Part shown: positions 1 to 18,766 of the stretch, piece after piece | Numbering within the stretch: position 1 is the stretch's first letter | How the letters are laid out: each line of letters begins with the position of its first letter | Assembly: GCA_965209085.1 (NCBI GenBank) | Contig: OZ242376.1 | Span: 1,216,001 to 1,280,000 of the forward strand | Length of the DNA: 64,000 nt | Direction of reading: 5' to 3' | From: Nitrosopumilaceae archaeon | GTDB lineage: Archaea; Thermoproteota; Nitrososphaeria; Nitrososphaerales; Nitrosopumilaceae | Notes under the pieces: model-generated | The model's database searches: none | Told to the model about the DNA's origin: nothing | Seen by the model: the letters and a program-made list of their open reading frames with translations, nothing else | Program-made: the position numbers and the translations under genes

Positions 1-1
1 G

Positions 2-3000
2 GCATTCTCCATAACAGGTCCATACGGTTCTGGCAAATCTACTTTGGCAGTATTTTTGGAAGGGTTGTTATCTGCAAAAAAAGATCCTGCATACGAACAA
101 TCCAAGAAATTTCTAGACAGCATATCCTCAGAAGTGTCAGAAATATTGGAAGATGGTCGCCATATACTCACTGCACAAAGGAATGGATTCATACGATGTA
201 CGATAACCTCACAGTCTGAACCAGTCTCAATATCTGTAATACGAGCGCTAGATCGTGGTGCAAGAAAATATTTTGGGAATAAATATAGTAACAAGCATTT
301 TGCTACCGCCTCTGCACTTCATAATGCCATAAACGTGGTCGAAAATGCGACCATTAAAGGCAATATTGCAGAAATTCCAGATGCGCGATCTATTCGCTAT
401 ATTGTAGCAGGCATGTGTGAAAAAGCGCCAGTACTTTTGTTACTAGATGAATTTGGCAAAAACATGGAATATTTTGCAAAAAACGACAGTGTAGCAGACA
501 TGTACCTGTTGCAAATGTTAGCCGAATACGGCAGTGGTAAAAAAGCACTCCCGTTGTTCCTCATCACCTTGCAACACATGGCATTTGAAGAATATTCAGA
601 GGGCATATCTGCACCAAATCGACGTGAATGGTCAAAAGTGCAAGGTCGTTTTGATGACATCCCATTTTCAAATTCACCACAACAAACATGGGAATTAATA
701 TCAAATTCCATTGATATTAGCCCGTTTCCTCTAAGCCTAAAAACATGGTCAAAAAATCAACATAAAAAATTACTAAAAATTACAAACAAATCAATACCTA
801 GCACATTACAAATTGGTAATTGTTACCCATTACATCCCCTATCTCTAGTAACTCTCCCAGAATTGTGTACTAGATACGGTCAACATGAAAGAACTCTACT
901 CTCGTTTATGGTTGGAAGTGGTAAAAACACTGTGCATGATTTTTTGGATAATAATAATTGGGATCCACAAAACCCGTCTACAGTTGGTCTAGATGTATTG
1001 TATGATTATTTCATATCTGGACACAGATCGGTTCACAACCATACATCAGCCAATATTACTCTCCTAATGGAGATTCATCTAGTAATACGGGATTCTCACG
1101 GCCTCTCAAATCTAGCATCAAAGGTATTGAAGACAATCGGACTGCTAAACCTGTTGAGCATATCTGGACCTCTTAGGGCATCATCTAGCATGCTAGAATA
1201 TGCAATAGGCAAAGATTATCAATCAGCAATCCAGGAATTGCGACAGCGTTCCATAATTACATACAGGGAATATGCTGATGAATTTCGGGTCTGGAGGGGA
1301 ACTGATGTTGATCTCCAGTCATCAATAGACATTATACGCCACAGATATACCAAAACTCCCCTCCACGAGATCTTGGAAAAAGTTCAAAATCTTGATTCAA
1401 TGGTTGCAGCAAGACATGGTATCCGTAAAGGTACAATGCGTACCTTTGAGAGAGGGTTTTTGGACAATAAAGGGAACAGAATTTATGAACCTGAAAATGA
1501 CGACGGATTGGTTCTGTACTCTAGCGGGGATATGGTACAATCTACAAAGAAAATCGCAAAACCTGTAATCATAGTAGAATCTAGAGATGATCTTTTACCC
1601 CTGAGGCATTCTGCAATAGATGCACTATCCATAAAGGAAATTTTGGATACAGATCCCAACGTATCAAAAGATTGGGTTGCACGCAAGGAATTATGGGAAC
1701 GTATGGAATGGGCTACAAGCTCAGTAGAAGAGGAATTTCGTAGAGCATACGATCAGAATGCAACTTGGTGGTATATCAATCCACCAAATGGTAAAAAGAT
1801 CAAACTATCTGGAACAGGCGGCATGGCCATATCCCAAGCATCTGATTTAGCGTATGATATGATGCCACGCATACTCAACGAAATGATAAACAGAAATCAC
1901 CTATCAGCACAATCATCACGTGCACGTGCATTATTGGTTAATTCTATGATAAATCATGAACACGACATTCGTTTTAACATCAAAGGCTGGGGACCGGAGA
2001 GAGCAATGTATGAAGCTATTTTTGCAAATACAAAACTACACATTAAATCCAGTAAAAATTGGAATCTTGTAGAATCAGGAGGGAAATTCAAAAATGTATG
2101 GATACATGTAATGAAATATCTCGGATCAAACAAGGAGAGACGAATAAATTTGAATGAGATCTATATGGAGCTCCAAAAACCACCATTTGGGATAAAACTT
2201 GGTCTGATCCCGATAATAATAATATCAATGTTTGTGGCTAGTCACAATAAGATTGCCTTGTATGAGCATGGAACATACTGTCCGGAACTAGAACCTCAGA
2301 TACTAGAACGAATGTACAAAAACCCCAAATATTTTGAATTCAAATATTTTGGAGACAAGATGAATTTGCGACGCAGTATAATAACCGCAGTTGCAAAAGA
2401 GATGGAAATTACTTCAAAATCCAACAATGTTGAAATTTTAGACATTGTTGGAAAATTGGTAAAAACCATTGTAAAACTTCAAAAATATACCAAACATACA
2501 AAATCGTTCAAAGATAAACATACGCTAAAAGTACGCGATGCAATAATCAATGCAACAGAGCCTGATACATTGTTGTTTGATCTTCTTCCACAGGCTCTAA
2601 ACATTGATTTATTTGGAAAACATGCAAATGTTAGGACAATAAACAAATTTGCAAAAAATCTTGCTCGCTCACTGCATTTGTTAGAAAATACGTACGATGG
2701 TATGATTAATGATCTAGTCATCGAATTGTTAGATGTTTCTGGAATTGGGAAAAAAGAAGATCTAGTATCAGTTGCGGCCAATTTAAAAAATCAAATTAAA
2801 ATGGATCCAAAAATGCTCGGCATATTAAATGCCATATCTGTGGGAGATCTTGATGATTCTGATTGGATAACATACATTGCAATGGTTTTAACCGATGTGC
2901 CTCCAACCGATTGGACGGATCAGGATAAACTACAATTCAGTACAAACCTTGCAGAATTTGCAGCCAAATTCAAACGTATATTGGCAATACATGTTGATAA

Positions 3001-3238
3001 AATTAAAAAATCTGGCAGCGTACTACATCGTATTACCATTACAGAAAATACCGGACAAGAGTATATGAGCATGATACAATTAGATGATAAATATGGAACT
3101 AAATTCAAAACGGACGTACATAAATTAATCTCAAAAATAAAAAATGATAAAAATATTAAAACAGAAGAAAATGCCATTAACACAATTTTAGCTATACTTG
3201 GAAAAAAACTAGGTGTAAAAATTGCCAATACCGAATAA
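2..3238 (+). CDS. sspC: Large P-loop ATPase, SspC-like (phosphorothioation/BREX-C-related); 5'-partial
   Basis: Frame is open from base 2 and reads AFSITGPYGSGKST (Walker A) before the TTG at 44; Walker B LLLLDEFGK; EWSKVQGRF, CYPLHP, YGQHERTLLSF and PPFGIKLG motifs typical of the family; PAPS reductase nearby. Confidence 0.72.
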   Translation, partial: AFSITGPYGSGKSTLAVFLEGLLSAKKDPAYEQSKKFLDSISSEVSEILEDGRHILTAQRNGFIRCTITSQSEPVSISVIRALDRGARKYFGNKYSNKHFATASALHNAINVVENATIKGNIAEIPDARSIRYIVAGMCEKAPVLLLLDEFGKNMEYFAKNDSVADMYLLQMLAEYGSGKKALPLFLITLQHMAFEEYSEGISAPNRREWSKVQGRFDDIPFSNSPQQTWELISNSIDISPFPLSLKTWSKNQHKKLLKITNKSIPSTLQIGNCYPLHPLSLVTLPELCTRYGQHERTLLSFMVGSGKNTVHDFLDNNNWDPQNPSTVGLDVLYDYFISGHRSVHNHTSANITLLMEIHLVIRDSHGLSNLASKVLKTIGLLNLLSISGPLRASSSMLEYAIGKDYQSAIQELRQRSIITYREYADEFRVWRGTDVDLQSSIDIIRHRYTKTPLHEILEKVQNLDSMVAARHGIRKGTMRTFERGFLDNKGNRIYEPENDDGLVLYSSGDMVQSTKKIAKPVIIVESRDDLLPLRHSAIDALSIKEILDTDPNVSKDWVARKELWERMEWATSSVEEEFRRAYDQNATWWYINPPNGKKIKLSGTGGMAISQASDLAYDMMPRILNEMINRNHLSAQSSRARALLVNSMINHEHDIRFNIKGWGPERAMYEAIFANTKLHIKSSKNWNLVESGGKFKNVWIHVMKYLGSNKERRINLNEIYMELQKPPFGIKLGLIPIIIISMFVASHNKIALYEHGTYCPELEPQILERMYKNPKYFEFKYFGDKMNLRRSIITAVAKEMEITSKSNNVEILDIVGKLVKTIVKLQKYTKHTKSFKDKHTLKVRDAIINATEPDTLLFDLLPQALNIDLFGKHANVRTINKFAKNLARSLHLLENTYDGMINDLVIELLDVSGIGKKEDLVSVAANLKNQIKMDPKMLGILNAISVGDLDDSDWITYIAMVLTDVPPTDWTDQDKLQFSTNLAEFAAKFKRILAIHVDKIKKSGSVLHRITITENTGQEYMSMIQLDDKYGTKFKTDVHKLISKIKNDKNIKTEENAINTILAILGKKLGVKIANTE

Positions 3239-3254
3239 TCTACCCCCCAATATT

Positions 3255-4286
3255 ATGAAATTAAATATGACAAAATATGTTATAATATCATCGATTGTGC
3301 TTTTACTAGTTATCTCTAATGTAGGTATCGCACACATGCAAAATTCCAATACCATCCCTTCATGGATAAAAAATAATGCAAAATGGTGGAGTGATGGCGC
3401 AATTACAGATAATGAGTATATATCATCTTTAGAATATCTCATCGAACATAAAATAATAAAAATTGAAAATGATTTACAACAAAGTACAGAAATAATCGAT
3501 AATGGTGAATTTTACATAACTTATGATCCAAATCTAAACACCGCATATGAAGGGATAGATATAGCTCTCAGATATTTACAAGAGTATGAAATTTTAGAAA
3601 ATGAAGTTGAATTTCTTAATGAACATTTACGTTTACCCTATGATGTTGAAATTTTAGCTACAGAATGTGGAGAAATAAATACATTATATTATCCTGATGA
3701 AAAACAAATTGTAATATGTTATGAATTTGTAGATTATGTTTTTGAGCTATATCATTATTATAATGAATATGATGAAAATGATGATTATGTAAGTAATTAT
3801 GCATATTCAGTAATTATTGGAGCATTTTATCACGAATTAGGCCATGCATTAATTGACATATATCAATTACCAATTTCGGGTTTGGAAGAAAATGTTGTTG
3901 ATCAATTTTCTGTATATATGATGGATTTTTTTGTTGGTGATGATTATAACTGGTCAGGAGCTGATATGATACTTGCTAACGGATATAGTTATGATTTAGA
4001 AAATGCCTGGCTGAATGAATTTGAAGATGCCTATGAAGAACGCATATATCATGATACTCATGGATTAGATGCTCAAAGAAAATATAATCTGTATTGTTGG
4101 GGATATGGATCAAATATCATAGAATATGAATTCATGATAACGGAGGGACATTTGCCAGAAGAGCGTGCATATAATTGTGAATTAGAATATAGTCAAATAG
4201 TTGATGCATGGCAATATTTCTTAGATGATTATGATTACGGATTTTTTGAGTTAAATTCTGAACTAGAATGGAATTCTTCATCATAG
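3255..4286 (+). CDS. Secreted DUF4344-type zinc metallopeptidase with thaumarchaeal IPxWIKNNAxWW domain
   Basis: Signal peptide; IPSWIKNNAKWWSDGAITDNEY repeat domain; HELGHALID...LPISGLEENVVDQ; HGLDAQRxYNxxCWxYG. Confidence 0.8.
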   Translation: MKLNMTKYVIISSIVLLLVISNVGIAHMQNSNTIPSWIKNNAKWWSDGAITDNEYISSLEYLIEHKIIKIENDLQQSTEIIDNGEFYITYDPNLNTAYEGIDIALRYLQEYEILENEVEFLNEHLRLPYDVEILATECGEINTLYYPDEKQIVICYEFVDYVFELYHYYNEYDENDDYVSNYAYSVIIGAFYHELGHALIDIYQLPISGLEENVVDQFSVYMMDFFVGDDYNWSGADMILANGYSYDLENAWLNEFEDAYEERIYHDTHGLDAQRKYNLYCWGYGSNIIEYEFMITEGHLPEERAYNCELEYSQIVDAWQYFLDDYDYGFFELNSELEWNSSS

Positions 4287-4355
4287 AATGCCTGATGATT
4301 AGATATGATCAACAGAATTTAACATTCAACATTTTATTATGACCCATGTTATGAT

Positions 4356-5162
4356 ATGATCATGGGAGATATTCCAACTAGAGATGACATAAGCATAGGC
4401 TCATCAGTACATGTAATCTGCAAAAATGATCAAAAAAGTGGTAAAATCACAAAAGGTATCGTTAAAAAAATATTAACAAAGTCACACGATCATCCATATG
4501 GAATAAAAGTAGAACTTGAAGACGGTAAAATCGGCAGAGTAAATAAAATTGAAACTCGTAACATCACATCTGCAGTAATAAATAACAAAACAAATCCAAA
4601 TGAATCCATTTTTGAATTACTTGATGAAAAAATTATACCGAATACAGAAGATACACAAAATGAATTCAAAGAATTTTATCAATACGATGAAGATATGGCA
4701 AAAATACCATTAAATATGTCGAATAGAAATTCAATAATAAACACAAAAGCTAAAGTTGTTCAAAAAAGATTTGTTATTGCAGTTTGTGCATTTGGCAATA
4801 GCCAAATAGGTGGTTTTGTTTACATCGGAATCGATGCTAAAGGGAAAATTATGGGGTTAGATAGAGATATGAAATTTGGAAAATTTTCAAATTATACTGA
4901 TGAATTTGCAAATCATGTAAGGGATACACTTGGCCATTATTTGCAAAATAGATCTTTTGTTGTCAGTAAATTAAAATTTGAATTTACAAAAAGAAATGAT
5001 AAAACCATATGCATAATACAAGTATCTCCATCAGATGATGCATTATTTTTTACTGATGGTAAATTATCCGAATTTTATGTACGTGGACCAGCGCCAAGAG
5101 CTGAACATCTTACTGGTAAAGATATGGCCACATATATTATGGGCAGATTTCAAAATAATTGA
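4356..5162 (+). CDS. YwbE (DUF2196) domain fused to Schlafen/AlbA_2 nuclease domain
   Basis: N-term KNDQKSGKITKGIVKKILTKSHDHPYGIKVELEDGKIGRV = YwbE; C-term EDTQNEFK, CAFGNS.GG..YIGID, FYVR = AlbA_2. Confidence 0.8.
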   Translation: MIMGDIPTRDDISIGSSVHVICKNDQKSGKITKGIVKKILTKSHDHPYGIKVELEDGKIGRVNKIETRNITSAVINNKTNPNESIFELLDEKIIPNTEDTQNEFKEFYQYDEDMAKIPLNMSNRNSIINTKAKVVQKRFVIAVCAFGNSQIGGFVYIGIDAKGKIMGLDRDMKFGKFSNYTDEFANHVRDTLGHYLQNRSFVVSKLKFEFTKRNDKTICIIQVSPSDDALFFTDGKLSEFYVRGPAPRAEHLTGKDMATYIMGRFQNN

Positions 5163-5353
5163 TTATTAGTATAACCTAAAACAAATAGATGATATATGAT
5201 ATTTTAACACAATAAAAAGATTATATCGGATACATAATTGATCAAGTTCATAATTTTATGAGCAAAAATGACGTATTTGAACGATTATGTATACGGTCGA
5301 ATGGTTTAGAATGCCAATTATGAAATTAATCATATACATAATACTATTAAGTA

Positions 5354-7111
5354 GTGTGGCGTCTAAAATTATCTGTGGGAACTGCAAAATTAGTAGAACT
5401 AAGTGAAAAACAAATACGAGACATATTTGGACATGAACATCATTATCAAGTTCCAAAATATCAAAGAGAATATTCATGGTCAGATGAACAAATTAGTGAA
5501 TTTATGTCTGATTTGTTTGAACATGTGGATAACGAATTAGAAAATTATTATTATTTTGGAACAATTTATCTTATTGGTATTAATGATAAAAATGAGGAAT
5601 GGATGGTTGTCGATGGTCAACAACGCATAACTACATCACTCATTTTTCTTACTGTTGTTCGTGACATAATTAGAGAATTTGATAAAAATGACTATGCAAA
5701 TGAAATTGATCGATATATAAAATATCAACACGAATCAGAATATAAAATACGTTTAGAATTAAATACTAGAAATAATGATTTTTTTAAAAATAATATGATG
5801 ACAGATAGGACAACTGATCAAAAATTTTTATCGTTCAAATCTGCTGAAAGTCAAAATAAAAATCTTGTTGATGCATATACAAATATTTATGAACATATAC
5901 AGAATAAAATTAATAAATTAACAAAACAAGATATAAAATTAGAATATTTGAAAAATACTGTAGAATATTTTCTGAAATATTTTATTGTGACTCAAAATAT
6001 TGTTGAATCACATGAAGTCGTTCAAGAAATTTTCGATACAGTAAATCATAGAGGAATACAATTATCGGAAATGGATTTTGTTAAAAATGAAATACTAGAA
6101 CTAATTGAACAAGATAAAGATGAAAATGAAGATGTTGGAGAATGGAATCAACAGTGGATAGAAATTTTAAATATTCTAAATATGATCAAAGTAAAAGAAA
6201 CTCAATTTCTTCGACATTATTTATTAGCATATCATAAAAAAACTGCAATGAAAAATGTTGCCAATACAATTATTTCTATTGTTGAAGATGGAATACCACC
6301 GACAGAATTTATTAAAGAATTACGCTCTACAGTAACAAACTATGCTATACTAAAGAATCCACCATCATTCCGTGAAAACAGGAAATTACATAATAGTTTG
6401 AATGCAGTAATATCATTAGAATCACAGACATTATATCCTGCATTGTTAGTTGGATATGAAAAATTAGGAGATAGTGAACTATTTATCAAATTGACAGATA
6501 TGTTAGTAAAATATTTTTTTAGAGCTAGAACGATATATCATAAAGAATCCCACAATATTGAAAACGCCATAGTGAAAATCTGTGTTATGCTAAGAACAAT
6601 CCCAGATACTCCATCACAAGATGTCTTGGAAGGTATCAAAAACTATCTTCATTCCCCAAAAATAAATCCGTCTGATGATGATTTTGTGTCTGCTTTTAAA
6701 ATATGCACAATAAAAAATGAAAGTACCGCAATCTATATTCTAAGTAAACTAAATGAAGCAATGTCTGGTCATGATCAAATTGACAATCCATTTTTAGAGT
6801 ACATAATGCCAAAAATGATTACAGATACTAAATGGGATGAATATTTAAGGGGTAAATTAAGAATAAGTGATATCAATGATCGTAAAATTTATCATTTAAA
6901 TAATTTATATAAAATTGGAAATATGACTTTACTTAATACACAACATGTGCCCAGTTCAGATTATATCGATATAAAAATAAGTACAATATATAATGATGAA
7001 AAAATACTAATGACAAACTCTTTGAAAAAATTTATCAAGTGGGATGAAGAAGATATTAAAGAACGTCAAGAAATGTTTTCAAAGTTAGCTAGAAAAATTT
7101 GGCAATTATAG
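5354..7111 (+). CDS. DUF262-DUF1524 (GmrSD/SspE-like) protein with altered HNH motif
   Basis: PKYQREYSW, VVDGQQRITT, FDTVNHRGIQLSEMD (DUF262); C-term LEYIMP...KIGNMTLL...IKERQ (DUF1524, EHxxP His replaced by Tyr). Confidence 0.85.
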   Translation: MWRLKLSVGTAKLVELSEKQIRDIFGHEHHYQVPKYQREYSWSDEQISEFMSDLFEHVDNELENYYYFGTIYLIGINDKNEEWMVVDGQQRITTSLIFLTVVRDIIREFDKNDYANEIDRYIKYQHESEYKIRLELNTRNNDFFKNNMMTDRTTDQKFLSFKSAESQNKNLVDAYTNIYEHIQNKINKLTKQDIKLEYLKNTVEYFLKYFIVTQNIVESHEVVQEIFDTVNHRGIQLSEMDFVKNEILELIEQDKDENEDVGEWNQQWIEILNILNMIKVKETQFLRHYLLAYHKKTAMKNVANTIISIVEDGIPPTEFIKELRSTVTNYAILKNPPSFRENRKLHNSLNAVISLESQTLYPALLVGYEKLGDSELFIKLTDMLVKYFFRARTIYHKESHNIENAIVKICVMLRTIPDTPSQDVLEGIKNYLHSPKINPSDDDFVSAFKICTIKNESTAIYILSKLNEAMSGHDQIDNPFLEYIMPKMITDTKWDEYLRGKLRISDINDRKIYHLNNLYKIGNMTLLNTQHVPSSDYIDIKISTIYNDEKILMTNSLKKFIKWDEEDIKERQEMFSKLARKIWQL

Positions 7112-7283
7112 TAATAGATGATTATCAATTTAAAGATTCCAGCATACAAACGCATGACCGTTGATCATAATAAAATATTTGCTAGATGAAGAATGCATAT
7201 AGTATAAGAATTTATAATTTACATTTTATCATAAACACAACGAATACAATCTCCAAAGTAACAATTACCCCACATTATTGTTT

Positions 7284-8322
7284 CTAAAAAATTAGATAAT
7301 CGTGCAGTTTGACAAGTTTCATCTGTTTGGACAGTATGACCTTGTCAATTTTCTTTTTCAGGTGTCTGATCGATTCAAAATGCCCATTTGATATGCATTT
7401 TCGTAAAACACGCCACTGGATTTCTATAGGATTCAGCTCTGACGTATACGGTGGAAGATAAATTAACCTGATTCGTCCTTTTCTAGATTTGACGTATTCG
7501 AATACGTCACAGTGGCGATGATAAGAGGCATTATCGTACACTATTGTCACATGATCAAACTCTTTTTCCAGGATTTTTATAAAATCCAAATGGCTGTCTT
7601 TGTTTGCTTTATCGTAAAACTCGAATATGAAAGAATCCTTGTTCAAGCTCCAAACATGGTTATTCTGTGTCTAGTCGGATCCAATGGAACTTGGGGTTTG
7701 CTGCCTATGAGGTACCATGTGTCACGGATATTGGTTGTTGGATGCAGATGAATCTCATCCATAGCCACGGTTACTGCTCAGTGTGCCTCTCTGCCAATGT
7801 GCCTAGCTTTTTTCTAAAGTGCTCCTGTTCACTCTTTGATGCATCTTTGGGATGGTACTGACGGGGTTTTTGAATTGTAAATCCAAGACGTTTGAGTAGA
7901 TTTTGTACAAAACGAGGGACATATTTTACTTTGAATTTTTTTCAGATGTGATCCGTTACCATTACAGTAGACCATGCGGACTGACCATATCTGTATTTTT
8001 CAGGTACGGCAATCAGATCCTTTGTTAGTTTTTCAAGCTGTTTTTCTAAAAAATAGCATCCCCTGCCAAGATGTTTTATGTTGTATCTGAAGGTTAGTCA
8101 TCCTCCATTACCCGTATGAGCCATTTGCATATTGTTGTCTTTTTTACGCCAAGTTCCTCGCCAATTTCCTCTCATTGTTTTACCCTATTTTCTTTTAATC
8201 CATGAGAGAAGACGCTGTTTTGCAACTGGAATCTTTTCTTTTGCATGACAATTTCTAAGATATGCGATGCTCATGTTTGGCATGAACTTGATGCCTGCCG
8301 GAATTCTGTTCTGTCGTGTCAT
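7284..8322 (-). pseudogene. IS630-family transposase, fragmented
   Basis: C-term DDE_3 motifs IVYDNASYH and LPPYTSELNPIEIQW (7284-7646); N-terminal part (MTRQNRIPAG..., ATG 8322) broken by stops/frameshifts. Confidence 0.85.
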
Positions 8323-8413
8323 ATTTGCTCTGAAACCTGATGCGATCTAAACGTAGCGGTCAAATTTTTGTTAGAGTGGTTGAATGTAATTGACAACTTC
8401 TTATGCTATATCA

Positions 8414-10162
8414 CTAGTTTTCTAACGTTTTCATTAATTCAGCAAGACGCCTACTCCAATCAAATCTGACATTTCTTAAATTTCTCAGTTCATCATCCGA
8501 TAGACTATGATTTTCATAATATGCCCAGGATACAAACATCAAATTTATAGCTACACGTAACTTATTCATGATATTTTTGATATCCTTCATATCAATATCT
8601 TCTGGAATTTTTTCAATGGCTCCAACTATGTGCTTATAGGCTGGATGAAGTTCATTTAATGTTATTATAGTAAGTCCACTTTGAAAATCAACATCAAAGA
8701 AATAATTGTTAGCTAATTGTGCAGTTATAAGTTGAGTTTTCACTTTGTTCGTTAACATTAGTTTAGCTTCTACAGATGCTTTTTCAGGATCAAATATTTT
8801 GGAAAGTGCTTCAGTTAAAACTTTTTCTTTCTCATCATTTGACATGTTTTCTTGTTCTTCAGTCCTAGTTGGACTTGTGTCTGTATCAGGATAAAGATTG
8901 GAATCACGGTCAGAATTTTTTTTAGGACCCGCATTTGTACGCTTAATTCTAGTTCTCATGGCACGAATTCTAGCGTTTATGTGTATCACTAATTTTCGTA
9001 AATCGTCTAAGTCATCATCATCATCATCATAATCTTGTTGTTCTTCATTACGAGATATTGCACCAATTTCCTGAGTCATAGCAGAAAAATTATTGGCATC
9101 CTGTTTAGTATTGGATACACCAAACACATCATCTAATGCAGTAGGAAATTCTAGTTCAACACCCCACCATCGTTCTAACGGATCATATGTTTGGCACAAG
9201 TTGGTATCGACGTATAACTCTCGATTTGCACGTATTAATGAGACTCCTAGGTTAGAATTAGCATGTTTACCATGAGTGAGACTTCCTGCTAATTGACCGT
9301 TTATCGGTGTTCTTGCTTCTTTGGTTGCAAACGTACAGCGGATTATTACATCATGACCATCCACAGATACAACATCCTCTAATTTATCACCATCAATCTG
9401 AAACATGGGGGTTTTGTCCCACGGGGTCGGTAGCCTTGTCGGAACCATTTGATAAAGTGGATCATTTGGGTGTATGTTATGAGTTTCAGCCATTTCATTA
9501 GTGTCAAGATCAAAAGTTACAACACTGATTTTAAGATTATTATTATGGATAAATTTTCGATATATTCTACCAACAAGTTTTTCTAAATTTTTTACCAATG
9601 TTTTTGATTTTTTAGATCGAATTTTATCTATATCTTCCCAAATAACCATAGTTCCTGATTTTGAATTTTTAAGATATTTGGATTTATTTTTCCAAAGTTT
9701 TGGCAATTCCGTTTTTTGTGGTTCCGTGGATCCTAAACCATCGGTAATACTATCAATAATGTTTATTTCTGAAAATAATACTTCATTAGGATTTAACCAT
9801 GAATATACAGTAACATGTTTACATTGGGACATAGATGATTGTGGGAGTCCTAATCCAAATTTACCAATTCCTTTTGTTTCACGATGTGTACCAGCACCAG
9901 CTGTAAGAGAATCCCACAATTCATTTTTATTCATTCCAACGCCATCATCGATTATTGCAATTTTTTCTAAACGTTTTGTAATCCTCTGGGATGAATAATT
10001 TTGTTTTTCTGCACATAAGATCTCAATATGTTTGGATTCGGCCTCTACTGAATTATCTATTATTTCGGCAAGTGCATATATTGTATTTCTATATGAAACA
10101 CTACGCATCGATGTAGCAAGTTGCTGGCCAGTATAAACGGGACGAATGTTAGTCATTACCAA
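8414..10162 (-). CDS. MORC-type GHKL ATPase (HATPase_c_3); candidate SspFGH-type effector subunit
   Basis: Bergerat-fold motifs ALAEIIDNSVEA, IIDDGVGM, IGKFGLGL, SGTMVIW; LDDVFGVSNTKQ; overlaps upstream helicase stop. Confidence 0.85.
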   Translation of the reverse strand: MVMTNIRPVYTGQQLATSMRSVSYRNTIYALAEIIDNSVEAESKHIEILCAEKQNYSSQRITKRLEKIAIIDDGVGMNKNELWDSLTAGAGTHRETKGIGKFGLGLPQSSMSQCKHVTVYSWLNPNEVLFSEINIIDSITDGLGSTEPQKTELPKLWKNKSKYLKNSKSGTMVIWEDIDKIRSKKSKTLVKNLEKLVGRIYRKFIHNNNLKISVVTFDLDTNEMAETHNIHPNDPLYQMVPTRLPTPWDKTPMFQIDGDKLEDVVSVDGHDVIIRCTFATKEARTPINGQLAGSLTHGKHANSNLGVSLIRANRELYVDTNLCQTYDPLERWWGVELEFPTALDDVFGVSNTKQDANNFSAMTQEIGAISRNEEQQDYDDDDDDLDDLRKLVIHINARIRAMRTRIKRTNAGPKKNSDRDSNLYPDTDTSPTRTEEQENMSNDEKEKVLTEALSKIFDPEKASVEAKLMLTNKVKTQLITAQLANNYFFDVDFQSGLTIITLNELHPAYKHIVGAIEKIPEDIDMKDIKNIMNKLRVAINLMFVSWAYYENHSLSDDELRNLRNVRFDWSRRLAELMKTLEN

Positions 10163-11790
10163 ACATCATCCCATTTAAAAAAAGCGTCTACAGGATCAGT
10201 GAATTGTGATAACGCATTATCTTTAATTACACGTATGTCACATTCTTTATTTCCGCCAACATTAATTCCACGCATAGCTCTGCCCACCATTTGACTGTAC
10301 AAAACAAGCGATTTTGTCGGTCTTGCAATTACAACTGCAGATGTTTTTGGGGCATCGAATCCAGTAGTAAATACTCCAACATTACACATGATTATTACAT
10401 CATCTGTTTCGGATTTATATTCGTTGATTAGTTGACTTTTAGTAATTGGATCAGTATCTGCATCAATATGGAATGATTTATGTTTAAGATACGTTAGAAT
10501 TATAGATATATCTCTAGAATTTTTAACACTAGCACCAAATACAATTATTCTTTTATGTTTTTCTGAGTTTATTAGATCTTTGATCTGACCGATAACCCGA
10601 ATGGTGCGACTAATATCCTTACCAATCTTATCAAGTATTGTATCCGGAATATCCGTGGGGGAATTAAAAATTTTTATTAAATCATCATCAGTTAGTTTTA
10701 TGTCGGATCGTATAGGTGTAATTTTTGGTTTAGACAAATATCCTTTTTTTATAAGATATTTTATTGGATTTTTATATCCAGATATTGTCAAGCTTACCTT
10801 ATTACAATTAAAAAATGATGACAATTCATCACTTTTTGATATCGAGGTTCTTCCAGGAGTCGCACTTAACCCCAATAACGGTATTTTATTAAAACGTTTT
10901 TCTGTTAATTGTTCTAAAATTTCCAAATATGTTGGCGCTATTGCTTGATGGGCTTCATCCATTATCACTAAATCTACACGATCAGCTAACTTACTAAGAA
11001 ATAATTCATCCCGTTTACTTTTTTGAAAAATTTTTCCTAAACTAGCTACAATTAAACCATCTTTATCAACATCAGTATATTTTATTAAATTAGTAGAATG
11101 ATTTCGAAAAAAACGAAATATGCGTATATTTCTATCTCCTGCATTGATCCACGTTTGTTTAAATTCATCAATTGCTTGCTCGCAAAGTTCTTCACTATAT
11201 GCCAACCAAATTATTAATACAGGTTTAGTTCTTGAAAAAAATGTCGATATTACTCGCATTGCAGTAATTGTTTTACCAGAACCAGTGGGCATATGTAAAA
11301 TACAACGCCGTCCATCATCATTATCTAAATAATTTACAATTTCCTCATATGCTTTTCTTTGATAATCAAATAATGATCTTTTTGGCATCACATTTTCTAT
11401 ATCACTTAATGTGGGAGGTTCATCTAATTCTATAGGAATTTTTTCCCCAAAAAATTCAAATAAAATTTTTTCAGATGTACTGTTTTTATTAAATGGGATA
11501 TTATGCATTTCTCTGTATACGTTATCCTCATTTAACTGAACATTTGTTATTTTTTGTAATAATTTTATTAATTCTGACGGACGCATACTATTTAATAATA
11601 ATTCTCTGATTTTTTTAGTTCGTAACATCTCTAGATGTGTATAATGTGAGGAAATGCATTGGCGTAATTTATGTGGATGTTGTAATTGCTCATCACTCAT
11701 CAATTGTATTATTTTAATTGCTTCTTTACTTATGAAATGATCTTGAATGGCAAGTTCACCCAATCGGTTAAAAATATCATCTAATTTCAA
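10156..11790 (-). CDS. SF2 DEAH (ResIII-like + Helicase_C) helicase; candidate SspFGH-type subunit
   Basis: MPTGSGKT, DEAH, GLSATPGR, VFTTGFDAP, QMVGRAMRG. Confidence 0.9.
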   Translation of the reverse strand: MKLDDIFNRLGELAIQDHFISKEAIKIIQLMSDEQLQHPHKLRQCISSHYTHLEMLRTKKIRELLLNSMRPSELIKLLQKITNVQLNEDNVYREMHNIPFNKNSTSEKILFEFFGEKIPIELDEPPTLSDIENVMPKRSLFDYQRKAYEEIVNYLDNDDGRRCILHMPTGSGKTITAMRVISTFFSRTKPVLIIWLAYSEELCEQAIDEFKQTWINAGDRNIRIFRFFRNHSTNLIKYTDVDKDGLIVASLGKIFQKSKRDELFLSKLADRVDLVIMDEAHQAIAPTYLEILEQLTEKRFNKIPLLGLSATPGRTSISKSDELSSFFNCNKVSLTISGYKNPIKYLIKKGYLSKPKITPIRSDIKLTDDDLIKIFNSPTDIPDTILDKIGKDISRTIRVIGQIKDLINSEKHKRIIVFGASVKNSRDISIILTYLKHKSFHIDADTDPITKSQLINEYKSETDDVIIMCNVGVFTTGFDAPKTSAVVIARPTKSLVLYSQMVGRAMRGINVGGNKECDIRVIKDNALSQFTDPVDAFFKWDDVW

Positions 11791-12011
11791 ATCATTATTT
11801 GATCAATTATATAGTATAAAATGTTACCGTGAATACAGCTCTGTTCATGAATGAGTATTTTTTATAAAAATCCGATCAAATTCATTCAAAATCATGCAAC
11901 ATGTACACCAATTCATCATCATCAAGCCCTGCTCATCTTGCCAGTATTGCAAATATTGTGTTTTAGAGTATAGCATACGCTAGGATAGCATCCAACACAA
12001 AGTGTCAGAAT

Positions 12012-12860
12012 CTAGACTGCGGCAGCTAAAATGGGAATATTATGGCACAAGACAAAAAAGCCCAATTCAATTTTCTGTGTTGCAAATTTGCTGGCACTTA
12101 GAATAGAAGAAACCTTCTCTTCATGGATGAAAACATGGCCTCTACATTGCTGCGTTTGTAGTATATGGATAGAAATTCATCAGGATTATCAAGATGCCAT
12201 CGTATCCATTGCGTCAAATCCACGTACACGAACACCTTTTCTTGGCATTATTACAGGAATTTGTCCGGTCTTTTCTATTAGCGTGCATATGTTGCGTGAA
12301 AGGTATGCTGCATCAAGCATCACGTGACCGGAACCGTGCGGCAGTGTGCCACATATTTGCTCAAATATTGGTACATCATGGCATCGTGTATGGGTAATAT
12401 CATATGATATGATGATTATGCTGTTTTCAGCAGTTACAATATACAATTTGCGATAATCCCATCTGAACCTTGATCCATTTTTTGCATAAAGCCACGTGTT
12501 ATGCCCGTTTATTGCAATTCCTGTAGAAACCCAGTACAGTGTACCTTTCATTCCAGGTCTACCTGCAGAATTTATCATCCATGTGATGAAATGCTCATCA
12601 ATTCTAGTAAATGTTACCTGCAACACCGACCTTGACGGCACTCTTTTCAAGCCCAGTATTGATAGTAAACGTGGTGAATCTTCAAGATAATCTACGAGTT
12701 CATCATATAACAATTGTTGCATTGTCTTTAGGGCAATATACGTAGTCATTCCCAGGGGCTGTTTCTAGCGGCGATCTGTATTGGTTTTTGACTCAAATCC
12801 ATTGCGGTGTACATTGTCTTTTTCGTGGTTTGAGGGATTTTTGATTTTTTTGTACATACC
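12012..12860 (-). pseudogene. IS4/IS5-superfamily (DDE_Tnp_1-type) transposase remnant
   Basis: LGLKRVPSRSVL, YRKLYIV, HD, MLDAAYLS in 12189-12749; frameshifted tail YYKRSNVEAMFSSMKRR (Y-x2-R-x3-E-x6-K); in-frame stop near the 5' end. Confidence 0.8.
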
Positions 12861-12959
12861 ACCTCATTGTACAGGGGTCCGCACCATTATGCATACGGTT
12901 TACTGCACAAGATGTTTGACCTTGCCAAAAAGATTATTTATTGGATACCAAGGTGTAAT

Positions 12960-14006
12960 ATGATGCAAATTAAGGATATTTTTGGAATGTTACAATATAA
13001 TAAATCGTCTAAAAATAATAATTGTAGATTCAATACCAATATTGATCTTATAAAATTTATCCAACAACGCTCTACAATAATTCATAAATCACGTCATCAA
13101 GAAATTAATAAAATATTAAAAATTGCTAATTTTATAAATAATACATTATATAATATTCCTACTTGTTATACATCTAGATGTGGTCATCAAATTGTACATG
13201 ATCCTGATCAACAATATTCTGAACATGATACATCTAGACAAATTAGTTCTCTATTAATTCGTGAATTTGATGAGTTATTAGTAAACCTATATTCTGGTTC
13301 AAATATGTCAGCACTTAGAATAGCACGTTCTATGATGGAGTGTTTATTACTTGTTGTTGCTGCAATTTCAGATCAATCAATATTTTACGAATCTTCTTCA
13401 AATAAAAATAAGCCGATGTGTTTTGCAGCTTTGCAGCAAACATTACGAGTACAAAAAATTGTTAAATCAGCTAAAAAAAATGGATTCCCAACAAAAAAAT
13501 TGCAAAATGATATGATGGGTATTGATAAATCGGTTCCAGCATTGGCATATTATTTCAATGCTAAAATCCCAGATGGAATAGGAAAAATCCCTAATGCATT
13601 AAATAAAAAAATAATAAATAATTTCGCAATAGTTGACTCTGATACTAAAATGAATGAATGTGGCAGTCAAGCTCTATACTCAATTTATAAATCATTATCA
13701 GAATATGTTCATATTGATCTAACTAAATTATATGATCAAAAATATGATAATTCAATACAATCTAACAATTTAGATGAATTTGATGAAATATTTCCAATAT
13801 TACTTACAGCCATAGATACAGTTATCTATTTTTATATAATTTTACTAGACATAAATAATTATAACGATGATGTTATTTTAAGAACATATATAACTAAACA
13901 TTTTCCAAAGATAAAATACAAAGATAACACATTGTATGCATGCTCAAAATTATTAAATAGTAAAAATTGGAAAAACAAAAATATGAAATTCACTGATCCA
14001 TATTAA
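12960..14006 (+). CDS. Hypothetical protein, possibly DUF5677/HEPN-like
   Basis: Long AT-rich ORF; SALRIARSMME and YKSLSEYVH resemble DUF5677/HEPN-like signatures; ATG 12960 has an AT-rich box ~25 bp upstream. Confidence 0.55.
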   Translation: MMQIKDIFGMLQYNKSSKNNNCRFNTNIDLIKFIQQRSTIIHKSRHQEINKILKIANFINNTLYNIPTCYTSRCGHQIVHDPDQQYSEHDTSRQISSLLIREFDELLVNLYSGSNMSALRIARSMMECLLLVVAAISDQSIFYESSSNKNKPMCFAALQQTLRVQKIVKSAKKNGFPTKKLQNDMMGIDKSVPALAYYFNAKIPDGIGKIPNALNKKIINNFAIVDSDTKMNECGSQALYSIYKSLSEYVHIDLTKLYDQKYDNSIQSNNLDEFDEIFPILLTAIDTVIYFYIILLDINNYNDDVILRTYITKHFPKIKYKDNTLYACSKLLNSKNWKNKNMKFTDPY

Positions 14007-14009
14007 ATT

Positions 14010-15379
14010 AGAGTTTATGCACAATCAATCCCATAGACATACGATTCTGACTGTGGCATTACCATGATCAAAACGCATAGTGAATAAAGTTCTCAAGCAG
14101 ACAACAAAATAAATCAAAATGTCATATATATGACAAAAAGCAAAATATTATGCGTGACCGTGTGCACAAAAATGTACTATTTGATTTGCGGGCAGACTCT
14201 CTCCAACGGTTCGATGTATTTACGATCCTTTAACATGTTATGCAGATTGGTCAGTCCTGTAACCACTTGGATTTCTGTATAAAACGCATCCATTGTATCA
14301 TCACATATGGCACTCATTCTACGGAACCATTTGAGCCGGTTTATGGCATGCTCTATTTTTATGCGCTTACGACTGATCCTCTTGCTGTATTCGCGTTCCG
14401 TCTCTGTCAGCCCCTTACCCTTTGGTTTTTTGTACGGCTACTTTAAGATAATTCCAGGATAGTCTTTTTCCACGGACAAGTATCCCTTGTCGGTGTAGAG
14501 TGTAATTTGGTACTCTTTTTTGGTATCAGAGTTTTTCATACCATCGGTCCATTTGCCAAAATTTGGCAGATTACGTCGCAGTACCTTCATGTCGTGTGCC
14601 GAGCCCTCTTCGGGTCTGCCAATGTCAAGTACCAGCCCATCCTTGTTGGATGTTATCTGTACGTTGTAGACGTACCTCTTACGCTTTCCAGAGTATACTA
14701 CCTCTTGGCTCTCCTGCGGTCTTTGAACCTGTACAGATGTGGCATCAAGATACAGATCTCCACCACCCCTGCCTGATGCGAATTTTTTAAACGACTCGAC
14801 GGTACGCTCTTCCCGTATTGCAGCACCAACATTCTCAGCCGTTGGAAGAATATTCATCAACAATTCATCAGAAAAGGTCAGATATCGGCTGATGGTACTC
14901 TGATCAACGCCGGCAATGACCGCAAGCATTTCCTGTTGGGGGTTATTGCGCTTGTGGCAGTGTGACAAACAAAATTTGTGGCGCAGTAAGGATACATGTA
15001 TTTCCCGGATCGTCGACATATTCTGAAAAGCGAGGGGTTTCTGGCGAGTCTACAGCGTTTATGAACCGTTCCTGAATCCATTCAAATTCTTCACGATCCA
15101 TTCCAGTCATCCCGTATAGATAATTATCATCATCAACCATATGGTTCAAGTATTAGTAAGCAGATTGTTTTTCGGTCTTATCCCCATCTATCATTTTTTT
15201 GTAGCGTTGATTTTCTGCTTCAAGATTGGAGATTCTTTTTTCCAACTTGGAGATTATTCTTTTTTCCAACTTGGAGATTATACGTTTGTCTGTGGCACAC
15301 ATGTTGTGTGGTTGTAATACTTGATCATAGATCTTTCGATTCATCAAAATTGCTTTTTTGGTTAATATGCACAAACTCT
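14010..15379 (-). mobile_element. IS5-family (ISL2/IS702-like) element, degraded copy
   Basis: Ends AGAGTTTATGCACAATCAA (14010) and TATGCACAAACTCT (15379); ATT direct repeats at 14007-14009 and 15380-15382; transposase broken into 15153-15374, 14943-15149, 14438-15019 and a tail; close homolog of 17055-18251. Confidence 0.9.
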
Positions 15380-15428
15380 ATTGAGTGTTCATGTATTATT
15401 AACAATATAATTTACACCACATATTTTA

Positions 15429-16256
15429 CTACAAATGACACATTGTACACGATTTTGCGTCATCTTCATCATCTAGCGCTTCAGATAAAACATCAACCAA
15501 TGGCAAGTTTTTTCGACTAGATTTTGCTTTTAAAAGTGCAAGTTTATGTTTTTCTTCAATTTCAGAACGCCTACCAATTAATTCTGGCAATGTTTCCCCC
15601 GGAGACCAAGAATACTGACGTTCTTTCATAGCATGATCTTCAAATGAGGATTTTCCATCATTCATTACTTTTTGTTCTATAGCTACGGCCTGTTTAAATA
15701 AATCAGGATGTTTATCAGCTAGTCCTACCCATTCGGATTTTCTCTGAAAAAAACAAAAATAACAACCAGAACGTGTGCGCCATTCATAATAATCAGGCAA
15801 ACCTATTCCAGATTCTTCCAGTATGCGTAATATGTCCACATGTTCCATATTGTCATCTATAAAAGGAAATTTAGTTGTAATGTTGGGTTTTGACGAAATA
15901 TGTCCTTTACGGTTTTTTTCATCTGCACGAATTGCCACATATGATACAGTTTCATCATCCCCAATCCATTCTTCTAGTGGTTTGATCTTTAATAATTTAG
16001 TACACCATCGCATTTGGGGGGATGGTAAAGTTCCACGAAATACCTCAAAATAATGATCAAATCCCCTCTTAGAATTAAGTCGGGCTATAGGTTTGCCAAG
16101 CACTGTTTCTAATTTTTTCAAATAAGTATAAGTCTCTGGAAGCTCAGCTCCGGTATCACAGAAAAAATACTCCATTTCTGGAACTTTTTCACGCATATAC
16201 ACTGCTAATGCACTAGAATCCTTCCCTCCAGATATACCACAAACATGTCTAACCAT
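15429..16256 (-). CDS. sspD: PAPS-reductase-family protein, SspD-like (DNA phosphorothioation)
   Basis: ISGGKDSSALA, DTGAELPETY, RWCTKLLK, RSGCYFCFFQ, C-terminal CTMCHL; short form without DndC extensions; SspC-like ATPase in same island. Confidence 0.75.
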   Translation of the reverse strand: MVRHVCGISGGKDSSALAVYMREKVPEMEYFFCDTGAELPETYTYLKKLETVLGKPIARLNSKRGFDHYFEVFRGTLPSPQMRWCTKLLKIKPLEEWIGDDETVSYVAIRADEKNRKGHISSKPNITTKFPFIDDNMEHVDILRILEESGIGLPDYYEWRTRSGCYFCFFQRKSEWVGLADKHPDLFKQAVAIEQKVMNDGKSSFEDHAMKERQYSWSPGETLPELIGRRSEIEEKHKLALLKAKSSRKNLPLVDVLSEALDDEDDAKSCTMCHL

Positions 16257-17021
16257 GCCTAATGTTATAGAGTCATGATTTTAAAACTTTTATTTGGAAA
16301 CTATCAATTTCATAACTAATGGATGAAATAAGCCCATGGGGGTAATGCTAGAATATATAAAATATGGGGATCTGAAAAAATACCCGATATTAGATCTGGA
16401 AGTAGTTTTATTGTTATGGGATATGCAAAATATAATAGCATATTAAAGAAAAATAAATCATTTTCGTTAGAACCGGATCTAGTGGTTGTAGATGAAGCTC
16501 ACCAAATCATCGTCAAAAAATATGTAAAATTATTACATTTGCTCACACCATTTTTGAAAGGTACGAGAGTAATTGTATTATCTGCCACTCCAGGTAGAGG
16601 TACAAAAATAGAACAAAATTTGAAACTAGTAGAATAATTTAACGATAATATAGAAAGAATCAGCGTTCCTAATGAATCGACTGAAAAATTAGATGATCAT
16701 AATGTAATTGCACATTTAGAAGAGCAAGGAATTCTATCCAGGATTGATCCTGACCCATTGATGACAAATATTAGATTTGATCTTTCAGATAAGGTTTGAA
16801 AACGTTTTGTCAAAATGATTGGAGATAAATATACTGATTTTGAAGAAACTGATCTTGTAAATCTTACCAAAAATATTCATAGAAATGCATTGACAGCACA
16901 ACGAATAATAGAATTATTAAAAAAGAAAAAAAGAATTTTATATTTTTGAACCACAAGCGAACAAACGTTGTTAATGTATGCGGTGATTTTAAAATTAGGA
17001 TATAATGCAGGATATGTTAAT

Positions 17022-18418
17022 AGACCTCATGCATAATTAACTAAAAAATCAATTTTGGCAAATCGAAAGATCTATGATCTAGTATCATGTGAGCATAGCA
17101 TGTGCAAATCAGACAAACGCATGATCTCTAAACTGGAAAAGACGATCTTAAAGATGGAAAAGACGATCCTAAAGATGGAAAAGAATAGCTCCAGGCAGGA
17201 ATCAGAAATTCAACACTACAAAAAGATGGCACAGAGTAGCAATGATGACAAAAGACAACATGTCGATAAATATTTGAACAAGGGAATTGGGAATGATGTT
17301 CATCTATATGAAATGACAGGAATGAACCGTGAAGAATTTGAATGGATTCTAGAACGGTTCAAAAAAACCGTAGAAAATTCATCAGAGATTCCCCGCTTTT
17401 CAGAATATGTGGACGATCCTGGAAACACCTGTATCCTTACCGTAAAGCAAGTTTTGTTTATCGTATTGTGCCGCAAACGCAATAATCTCAAACAGGGAGC
17501 ACTTGCGTTCATTGCAGACGTTGATCAGAGCACCATTAGCAGATATCTGACATTTTCTGATGAACTATTGATGGATATTCTTCCAACGGCTAAGAATATT
17601 GGTGCTGCAATACGGACAATACGTACAAGCGAGTTGTTTAAAAAATTCGTACCCGGCAGAGGCGGCGGCGAGCTATATCTTGATGCCACGTTTGTACAGG
17701 TTCAAAGACCGCAGGAGAATCAAGAGGCAGTATATTCTGGAAAGCGCAAAAGGCACGTCTACAGCATACAGATAACCTCCAACAAAGATGGAGTGGTAAA
17801 TGACATTGGCGGTCCAGAAGAGGGCTCAGTACATGACATGGAGGTACTGCGGCGTAATCCGCCAAATTTTGGCAAATGGACCGATGGCATGAAAAACTCT
17901 GATACAAAAAAAGAGCGCCAAATTACACTCTACACCGACAAGGGATACTTGTCCGTGGAAAAAGACTATCCTGGAATTATCTCAAAGCAGCCATACAAAA
18001 AACCAAAGGGTAGGGGATTGACAGAGACAGAACGCGAATATAGCAAGAGGATCAGTCGTAAGCGCATAAAAGTAGAGCATGCCATAAACCGGCTCAAATG
18101 GTTTCGCAGAATGAGTGCCGTATATGATGACACAATGGATGCATTTTATACAGAAATCCAAGTGGTTACAGGACTGACCAATCTGCACATCATGTTAAAG
18201 GATCGCAAGTATATCGAACCGTTGGAAAAAATTTGCCCTCAAATCAAGTAGCACATCTTTGTGCATACAGTCACGCATAATATCCTGCTTTTTGTCATGC
18301 ATATGATATTTGGATTTATTTTGTTGTCTGCTTGAAGGTTTTAGGCCATATGTACTTTGATCATGACAGTGTCATAGTAGGAACCGTATGTCTTTGCAGT
18401 TGATTATGCATGAACTCT
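17022..18418 (+). mobile_element. IS5-family (ISL2/IS702-like) element, apparently intact
   Basis: Imperfect TIRs AGACCTCATGCATAATTAACT / AGTTGATTATGCATGAACTCT; AAT target duplication at 17019-17021 and 18419-18421. Confidence 0.92.
17055..18251 (+). CDS. DDE_Tnp_4-type transposase with HTH and N-terminal coiled coil
   Basis: VDQSTISR (HTH), LDATFVQVQRP, YSGKRKRH, GSVHD, DKGY, RIKVEHAINRLK. Confidence 0.92.
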   Translation: MANRKIYDLVSCEHSMCKSDKRMISKLEKTILKMEKTILKMEKNSSRQESEIQHYKKMAQSSNDDKRQHVDKYLNKGIGNDVHLYEMTGMNREEFEWILERFKKTVENSSEIPRFSEYVDDPGNTCILTVKQVLFIVLCRKRNNLKQGALAFIADVDQSTISRYLTFSDELLMDILPTAKNIGAAIRTIRTSELFKKFVPGRGGGELYLDATFVQVQRPQENQEAVYSGKRKRHVYSIQITSNKDGVVNDIGGPEEGSVHDMEVLRRNPPNFGKWTDGMKNSDTKKERQITLYTDKGYLSVEKDYPGIISKQPYKKPKGRGLTETEREYSKRISRKRIKVEHAINRLKWFRRMSAVYDDTMDAFYTEIQVVTGLTNLHIMLKDRKYIEPLEKICPQIK

Positions 18419-18766
18419 AATGCAAAAACAGATAAAGAATTTAGAAAACAATTCATCATCAATAATTTTAGGGGTGGTGAAATTGACATTATTTTCAATC
18501 ATTCTGTATTTATCACATGATTTGATGCACCAGAAACTGACGTAATTTTTATTGCACGACCAATCTGCTCTCCAATATTAATATCTCAAATGGTTAGCAT
18601 AGGATTAAGAGGGTCCAATGTTGGAGGGACCAAATCATGTACGTTAGTACAAGTTGTAGATGAACTCAACAATCCATCTGAATTTGATCCGTATGCCAGC
18701 TATAGAATATTTCATCCGTATTGGCAAATTGATTCAGAATAATTTTTTCAACAGTACAAAATTTAT

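Follow-up and report, generated by a model that had tools for sequence, protein, structure and literature searches.

A stretch of 64,000 nucleotides from the genome of a Nitrosopumilaceae archaeon (C1:1216001-1280000; the window, taken here at its full length) opens within a predicted Ssp-type DNA phosphorothioation locus, and raises the question of which proteins respond to the phosphorothioate (PT) mark that such a locus would write. The Ssp-type mark is a single-strand PT at 5'-CCA-3' in host DNA. The answer proposed here is a module of an SF2 helicase, a MORC-like ATPase and a PLD-family nuclease, which by its sequences is neither SspE nor SspFGH and has no name; acting together, the three proteins probably constitute a restriction arm that cuts DNA without the PT mark. 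Approximately 84% of sspBCD loci are without either known effector, and more effectors are expected by the authors of that count (PMC8092258). The trio is a concrete three-gene candidate for such loci, in 22 of the 28 sspC carriers of this archaeal family as well as in many bacterial phyla; among archaea, the PT defence that has been put to experiment to date is Dnd-Pbe.

The writer genes lie in the window and immediately to its left (coordinates are those of the window unless a locus name precedes them):

L001:17611-18861, plus strand: sspA, cysteine desulfurase, adjoining sspB (PADLOC SspA 3.9e-125)
L001:18851-19804, plus strand: sspB (PADLOC SspB 2.3e-83; DUF4007 1.4e-77; models matched full length)
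1-3238, plus strand, first ~200 bases left of the window: sspC, ATPase of 1145 aa (PADLOC SspC 3.6e-272)
15429-16256, minus strand: sspD, intact PAPS-reductase-family protein of 275 aa with SGGKDS and Cys motifs (PADLOC SspD 4.7e-108)

These genes form a complete and intact SspABCD-type set, predicted to phosphorothioate the DNA of its archaeal host. An overlapping run of sspA, sspB and sspC ends in sspC, with sspA and sspB within 3.5 kb left of base 1. SspC is full length and carries Walker A (GPYGSGKS, at residue 73) and Walker B, and catalytic motifs are present in SspA, SspC and SspD. SspD reaches 359 bits with its own model, against 35 with BrxP (9.7e-10) and 23 with DndC (7e-6), and is 95% identical to its counterpart in a genome of the same genus (G001; dN/dS 0.05). 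Measured against G001, dN/dS is 0.05-0.14 for sspA-D and the PLD nuclease gene described below, and these genes are under purifying selection. The three-gene sspBCD operon, which is typical but not essential, is broken up here: sspD sits on the opposite strand, 12 kb away from sspC, while the two genes are 0.5 kb apart and convergent in G001 and co-directional in G017 and G019. PglZ (PF08665) has no match in this 98%-complete genome (control matched 2/14), so the locus is of Ssp type and membership of BREX type 4 is rejected; BrxL is absent from the 24 locus open reading frames (ORFs), no genome-wide BrxL search having been made.

Much of a preliminary description of the window is thereby borne out. 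It had read the ORF open from base 2 as an SspC-like ATPase and 15429-16256 as an SspD-like PAPS reductase, had presumed SspB (DUF4007) and the desulfurase to lie left of the window or to be host-supplied, and had recommended inspecting the upstream sequence and comparing Ssp with BREX models; a DUF4007 gene and a cysteine desulfurase are both present there, and Ssp models match sspC strongly and win over BrxP for sspD. Its archaeal Ssp-type writer in a tRNA-flanked island likewise stands, with all four genes intact. It had listed effectors and writer as one locus, which the distance and opposite strand of sspD show not to be one operon.

The proposed partner module consists of three genes:

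10156-11790, minus strand: SF2 (RadD/ResIII-like) helicase, 544 aa, intact (ResIII/DEAD/Helicase_C); its stop overlaps the MORC start
8414-10162, minus strand: MORC-like GHKL ATPase, 582 aa, intact (HATPase_c_3)
L001:16545-17543, minus strand: PLD nuclease gene, 332 aa, divergent from sspA, left of the window; without Pfam or NCBIfam hit

The coupling of a MORC/GHKL ATPase to an SF2 helicase, already noticed in the preliminary description, is confirmed by the overlap of the first two genes. The best PDB sequence matches of the ATPase are MORC2/3/4, and its structure model (pLDDT 86.7) matches the Hsp90/SMCHD1/MORC fold; E33, N37, D72 and the G-motifs are invariant, and residues 306-316 fit the MORC S5 signature GhXhhpXXRhl at all but one position, so that the protein may be a MORC or a paraMORC. 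The helicase matches RadD (1.2e-46) and the SauUSI entry 7clg (2.9e-24) and retains the Q, Walker A, DEAH, SAT and VI motifs. In the PLD protein, H97, K99, N114 and E130 are invariant in 51/51 aligned sequences, of which 42 match PLDc_2, and the catalytic H, K, N and E are invariant in 83/83 homologues. A structure model of this protein (pLDDT 75.9, from an alignment of five sequences) shows an N-terminal domain of the HKD nuclease fold, with matches to Nuc (Z 12.2, rmsd 2.8, 132 aligned), SauUSI (11.8) and BfiI (11.1); SauUSI thus matches both the helicase and the HKD domain. The C-terminal part matches N.BspD6I, BrxA, FokI and SspB at Z 5.8-7.3 over ~130-140 residues. Foldseek at E <= 0.001 returned no PLD match for the nuclease model, while the wide structural search was clear; in the ESM Atlas, the C-terminal part gave only matches below 0.9, to PLD-family or unnamed clusters.

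No matching system for the trio was found in PADLOC, NCBIfam or the literature. NCBIfam has no model above cut-off for helicase, ATPase or PLD protein; in PADLOC, 51 aligned ATPases match only MzaB, weakly, and 51 aligned helicases match only generic helicase parts, PbeA first. Literature searches, outside which subscription papers and supplements lay, turned up no account of the trio alongside PT genes. The word 'GHKL' does not occur in the searched portions of PMC10853773 and PMC12839542, and a report on sponge thaumarchaea describes dnd and DUF262 genes, with no 'ssp' in the sections available (PMC7848895). This locus contributes an archaeal census, a pairing of the trio with Dnd in addition to Ssp, one nuclease lineage that occurs with two motor lineages, and a nuclease domain of winged-helix-like appearance.

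In many phyla the trio is tightly linked to genes for Ssp or Dnd. When GTDB contigs were scanned using the alignment of the ATPase, the result was 79 loci from the best 80 of at least 549 confirmed stretches; the helicase is present in 72 of the 79, the PLD gene in 55, and sspB, C or D within 10 kb in 58. Where at least 8 kb was available on both sides, ssp genes occur in 40/48 loci, and the PLD gene is found in 33/40 ssp-positive but 2/8 ssp-negative loci (kin are not independent; three of the six ssp-negative loci without PLD are related Chloroflexota). Commonly the genes run sspB-sspC-sspD-helicase-MORC-PLD-(sspA), as they do in Cyanobacteria, Actinomycetota, Proteobacteria, Armatimonadota and other groups, with the trio often inside the ssp operon between sspD and sspA; one cyanobacterial record (L070) has a MORC-PLD fusion. 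Among 22 metagenome loci chosen by the PLD protein, dndB, C or D is present in ten and sspBCD in two.

A survey of 301 genomes of the family, each at least 85% complete and constituting samples in which kin are not independent, found sspC in 28, the ATPase in 27, the PLD gene in 28 and dndC in 57. In the 22 genomes with both sspC and the ATPase, the two lie within 12 kb on one contig in 19 and on separate contigs of fragmented assemblies in three. In the five ATPase carriers that lack sspC, the trio adjoins dnd genes in four and sspD in one (G028). The ATPase occurs in 4/35 genomes with dndC only, and in 1/238 with neither sspC nor dndC, where it abuts sspD. Conversely, six sspC carriers are without the ATPase, four of them showing split or partial sspC matches. 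Carriage of dndC is also frequent among the sspC genomes (22/28).

The window additionally holds the remains of a second motor gene, interrupted by an insertion sequence (IS):

16353-18742, plus strand: pseudogene of a helicase of the second lineage (MORC-first clade); the N-terminal ~240 aa and its own MORC gene are missing, and there are four in-frame stops
17021-18419, plus strand: intact-looking IS of 1399 bp (DDE_Tnp_4) with terminal inverted repeats; five other copies are >99% identical

The pseudogene, which this IS splits, aligns only to residues 242-565 of its nearest relative. Its breaks are not assembly errors, because contigs of two public runs, one of which may be the source of the window, cover it with few or no differences and carry the same broken sequence. 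Helicase sequences divide by gene order in a tree of 101 rows (quick search with SH-aLRT support only). A helicase-first group, both bacterial and archaeal, includes the intact helicase of the window; the other group is MORC-first (24 rows, support 99), mixes dnd- and ssp-linked loci, and includes the pseudogene and the G001 helicase. The PLD tree (FastTree) does not track the helicase tree: a single group (99) takes in 35 rows, the close archaeal ones among them. The closely related nucleases of the window and G001, 88% identical, accompany different motor lineages, as do those of L058 and G061, while those of G293 and G277 accompany dnd and ssp writers, respectively. Two helicase-ATPase lineages thus share one archaeal nuclease lineage, and motor pairs and writers appear to have been swapped. 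The second helicase is probably what is left of an alternative motor pair. A history in which an ancestor had both motor pairs and each descendant lost a different one was considered and dropped as unproven, because identity between the pseudogene and the G001 helicase is only 36%, against 94-95% for the flanking sspD and HNH end; in-place replacement fits equally. This ssp-trio copy may itself be decaying, with IS elements separating the helicase-MORC pair from sspD.

A wider proposal, which we advance tentatively and hold less probable than the restriction function itself, is that the trio is a widespread unnamed restriction arm of PT immunity and the usual Ssp partner in ammonia-oxidising archaea, in plug-and-play fashion: one nuclease lineage would combine with either of two distant motor pairs and with Ssp or Dnd, and the present locus, with one live and one dead motor pair, would be the record of such a swap. 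Given that one nuclease lineage occurs with two motor lineages and with Ssp or Dnd, it would sense the sulfur mark and not the motif. With a module that moves between Ssp and Dnd, one can ask directly which of the two an effector reads, sulfur or sequence.

The restriction reading, in which the trio most likely scans DNA in an ATP-driven manner and cuts it where PT marks are missing, draws its analogies from operons of MORC, SF2 helicase and nuclease genes, which are predicted restriction systems (PMC2292703), from SauUSI and from PbeA (PMC6459918). In such an arm, the MORC-like ATPase would act as an ATP-gated DNA clamp and scaffold and the helicase would move along DNA; the single-HKD nuclease would dimerise to cut and would read DNA via a C-terminal winged-helix module similar to the ones in FokI, BrxA and SspB. 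At PT marks on the host's DNA, the complex would either be blocked or let go. Several observations weigh against this scheme. In G028 the trio is complete and accompanied by sspD, sspA and sspB, but neither sspC nor dndC has a match, a gap that a strictly self-toxic enzyme should not tolerate. The PLD gene is absent within 10 kb of 7/40 ssp-positive loci, and five Anaerolineae/Chloroflexota loci keep helicase and MORC amid metabolic genes with no PLD and no ssp, so that the helicase-MORC pair can persist alone (another modification system at these loci was considered and rejected, the neighbours being metabolic genes). The cross-phylum loci are those closest to the window ATPase, and their rates do not hold for the other matches, at least 469 in number. 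The winged-helix match reaches only Z 5.8-7.3 from a five-sequence model and could stem from an arrangement found in many proteins. The trio is not contiguous in this genome: 11 kb separate the PLD gene from the helicase and MORC genes, which have a GC content of 0.32 against 0.385-0.40 for sspABC and PLD; as the intact pair also lies in a 12-kb block absent from G001, the motor pair seems to turn over while writer and nuclease stay. The disagreement between PLD and motor-pair trees likewise weakens the idea of a fixed three-protein complex.

Some of these same observations could be accommodated by a PT-licensed antiviral effector like PbeABCD or SspE, which would need host PT to become active and be harmless without it; the trio of G028 and the orphan pairs of Chloroflexota survive with an incomplete writer or none, and the trio pairs with ssp and dnd writers, which mark different motifs. 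The helicase part of PbeA is, moreover, the strongest PADLOC match of all 51 aligned helicases, and PbeA is a PLD-helicase fusion whose system is PT-dependent and not toxic to PT-less cells (PMC6459918). We nevertheless regard this as unlikely: the scarcity of the nuclease in ssp-negative compared with ssp-positive loci (2/8 vs 33/40) is expected if it harms unmarked self DNA, and no PbeB/C/D-like partner is present among the 24 locus ORFs scanned. Improbable to a greater degree is a role for the trio in serving the writer, by unwinding DNA or by processing or repairing SspB nicks during modification. Its placement between sspD and sspA in many operons would suit such a role, as would the nearest solved helicase, the repair helicase RadD, and the involvement of MutL-like ATPases in repair (PMC2292703). 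However, PT is written in E. coli by IscS/SspBCD alone (PMC8092258), the trio also occurs beside dnd, which has no SspB, and exchange of the motor pair between close relatives with a conserved writer better fits a conflict gene than a housekeeping helper. There is equally little to recommend a defence system that works on its own and only happens to occupy the same defence islands as PT genes. In its favour, a Mokosh-like set and further nucleases are present in the island and a viperin lies close by, and the 22/28 sspC genomes that also carry dndC point to defence-rich lineages. Against this stand the same-strand, overlapping placement in ssp operons of many phyla, the near-absence of the ATPase from writer-less genomes of the family (1/238) and the lack of a methylase or other modifier among 26 recurrent neighbours of the trio scanned.

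The least probable account, to which we give almost no weight, is that of the preliminary description, in which a DUF262 protein is SspE and the MORC protein with two helicases is SspFGH, giving two known effector types on one archaeal Ssp writer. The first of these assignments concerns one gene:

5354-7111, plus strand: DUF262-DUF1524 (GmrSD/DndI-like) protein, 585 aa; GmrSD_N/DUF262 and GmrSD_C/DUF1524; predicted nuclease-dead

In PADLOC this protein matches HEC-06, which we take to be GmrSD-like, over its full length (1.1e-80), and SspE (1.3e-14) over residues 24-135 only, an N-terminal match of 112 residues to profile positions 17-138 of 766 (SspE ~770 aa). Tyr replaces the HNH His (EYIMP, compared with EHIxP in G002 and G028; the EHxxP motif), and Val stands at the position of the catalytic Asn of DndI, N541, as placed by a weak alignment. 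The protein does keep the PT-sensing motif PxYQ and the NTPase motif DGQQR of SspE and DndI (PMC13251355, PMC11662687), but PxY/FQ and DGQQR are found in nearly all DUF262 homologues. Its sole PDB relative is 9JFL, which is DndI (PMC11662687). A DUF262/DUF1524 protein is therefore present as described, and its identity as SspE is rejected on the partial match, the length of 585 aa, the single PDB relative and the two lost HNH residues; it would be at most a non-cutting accessory. Tyr in place of the HNH His recurs in 11/37 DUF262-DUF1524 homologues, most with intact DGQQR, which are possibly nuclease-dead sensors.

The second assignment fails on composition: as described, SspF has a Walker A motif, SspH resembles FtsK, and SspFGH includes neither a GHKL nor an SF2 subunit (PMC8092258). 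SspF and SspG have no match in the genome (one model each genome-wide, and all PADLOC models on the 24 locus ORFs), while the same models match 3/3 control genomes that also carry the helicase-MORC pair; nor does SspH have a match in the genome, its model matching control locus L079 at 5.6e-95. Comparison with 967 residues of real SspH showed no similarity beyond Walker A. As SspFGH and the helicase-MORC pair co-occur in control genomes or loci, they are two distinct modules. The second paralogous helicase, previously counted as an effector part, is the truncated, IS-split pseudogene at 16353-18742. What survives of the proposed MORC-helicase effector is its linkage to Ssp; the module is helicase, MORC and PLD, its equation with SspFGH is rejected, and neither known effector is found. 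In eight divergent ssp loci (L045, L047, L053, L055, L062, L079, L083 and L111), the helicase-MORC pair is present and the gene in the SspD position scores weakly or is cut off; three genomes there have SspF/G matches.

Further features surround these genes:

3222-4286, plus strand: DUF4344 putative metallopeptidase (PF14247), a passenger without counterpart in the matching G001 locus
4356-5162, plus strand: DUF2196/YwbE and Schlafen AlbA_2 protein, a recurrent trio neighbour in this archaeal family
7197-8373, minus strand: IS630-type transposon remnant (DDE_3); four other near-full copies at 93%
11875-12857, minus strand: degenerate DDE transposon (DDE_Tnp_1); several genome copies
12867-14006, plus strand: DUF5677-like ORF (weak PF18928, below cut-off), a passenger
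14007-15371, minus strand: broken IS copy, 81% identical to 17021-18419 (the IS inside the pseudogene) and inverted
18767-19858, minus strand: HNH endonuclease, 363 aa (HNH_4), a recurrent trio neighbour
21446-22732, plus strand: integrase-like (tyrosine recombinase) gene beside tRNA-Arg(CCG); weak archaeal XerA match, below cut-off
22869-22944, minus strand: tRNA-Arg(CCG), right border of the island; beyond it GC climbs to 0.44

A protein cluster whose representative carries DUF2196-AlbA_2 domains occurs in 15/101 loci examined, and such a protein is also found beside the PLD gene. Close homologues of the HNH endonuclease occur in nine loci examined, two of them duplicates; its N-terminal domain is conserved and unannotated, and sequence searches for a sulfur-binding-domain nuclease gave generic HNH matches only. 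The HNH and DUF2196-AlbA_2 proteins may be further parts of the trio.

The host genome is a single contig of 1.69 Mb, 98.35% complete, in which the ssp locus occupies a low-GC island (0.35 vs 0.415). Proteins from genomes of the same family are grouped with, or identical to, sequences labelled Nitrosopumilaceae/Cenarchaeum, which makes the host a thaumarchaeote. The tRNA-integrated island of the preliminary description is recovered with its tRNA-Arg(CCG), integrase-like ORF and a degenerate, att-like copy of the tRNA-Arg 3' end, located 52 kb left of the tRNA and 29 kb left of base 1 (C1:1186955). Four IS elements or remnants lie between 7197 and 18419, and the genome-wide IS load is high with a recent burst, the 1399-bp element being present six times at >99% identity. 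Left of the PLD gene are two low-GC ORFs (L001:13410-16221, plus strand), the first of 327 aa, without clear family match and with a SIR2-like start by eye, the second of 574 aa with DUF4209 (PDC-S39 weak). The Mokosh-like set in the same island (L002:12619-17379, plus strand) comprises an 857-aa helicase (MkoA 8.8e-87), a 375-aa unknown and a 362-aa PLD protein (DrmC/MkoB matches). Beside the far att-like site is an ORF that is NurA-like by eye (L002:11509-12309, plus strand), with a similar-looking ORF at the other tRNA-Arg island, and just outside the site lies the prokaryotic viperin (L002:465-1310, minus strand; pVip 4.8e-88), which is also near the G001 locus. A Pro/Lys-rich repetitive ORF (24509-25462, minus strand) is outside the island.

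The genome carries both Dnd and Ssp writers, as a second island holds a complete dndB-C-D-E-A set (G000:C1:1116880-1123002; L034:11880-18002, minus strand). This island lies between an integrase-like gene and tRNA-Arg(GCG), includes another DUF262 protein, and has at its far end an ORF 67% identical to the integrase-like 21446-22732. Downstream of dndA are four co-directional ORFs (L034:8462-11803, minus strand; 273, 252, 351 and 241 aa) with no PADLOC match; by eye the first is ParB-like and the third metallo-beta-lactamase-like, and they are a possible unnamed Dnd partner. In G002, and apparently also G017, a PDC-M33-like cluster occurs with a second PAPS-reductase-domain protein and a DndB-like gene (L023:17558 to L024:3549), perhaps another PT-type system.

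Compared with known systems, the locus shares with Ssp-SspE/SspFGH the four writer genes, the overlapping sspA-sspB-sspC run and effector genes alongside (PMC8092258); it differs in its archaeal host, the detached sspD, the absence of SspF/G/H or a true SspE, and a partner made of helicase, GHKL ATPase and PLD protein. The DUF262 protein has in common with DndI (9JFL) and HEC-06 a length of ~590 aa, DUF262 with DUF1524, PxYQ and DGQQR (PMC11662687), yet has Tyr for the HNH His and no N541 equivalent and is not a constant neighbour of the trio. DndCDEA-PbeABCD likewise belongs to archaea, is linked to PT and combines a PLD domain with a helicase of ResIII type, and PbeA is the top PADLOC match of the helicase (PMC6459918). 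In the window genome, however, PLD and helicase are in separate genes >11 kb apart, the PbeA match is partial (1.3e-25, ~200/672 profile positions), a GHKL ATPase takes the place of an ABC-type ATPase and two small proteins, and the trio is mainly Ssp-linked (PMC6459918). With no PLD-helicase fusion, and no PbeB, PbeC or PbeD among the 24 locus ORFs scanned (very small ORFs left out), membership of PbeABCD is rejected. SauUSI, BfiI and Nuc share the fold of the PLD N-terminal domain (Z 11-12) and the order of a nuclease domain followed by a likely recognition domain; the trio PLD differs in having no fused helicase and a C-terminal domain that looks to be of winged-helix type. Prokaryotic MORC/paraMORC operons also place a GHKL ATPase next to a helicase of Rad25-like type, in some cases with an HKD domain, and are predicted to act in restriction; their partners are DNA methylases, no PT genes being named in the portion of that account consulted (PMC2292703), whereas the HKD protein here is separate and has its own DNA-binding-like C-terminal domain. 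If the restriction reading is true, a prokaryotic MORC-like ATPase would acquire a testable job in reading a DNA mark.

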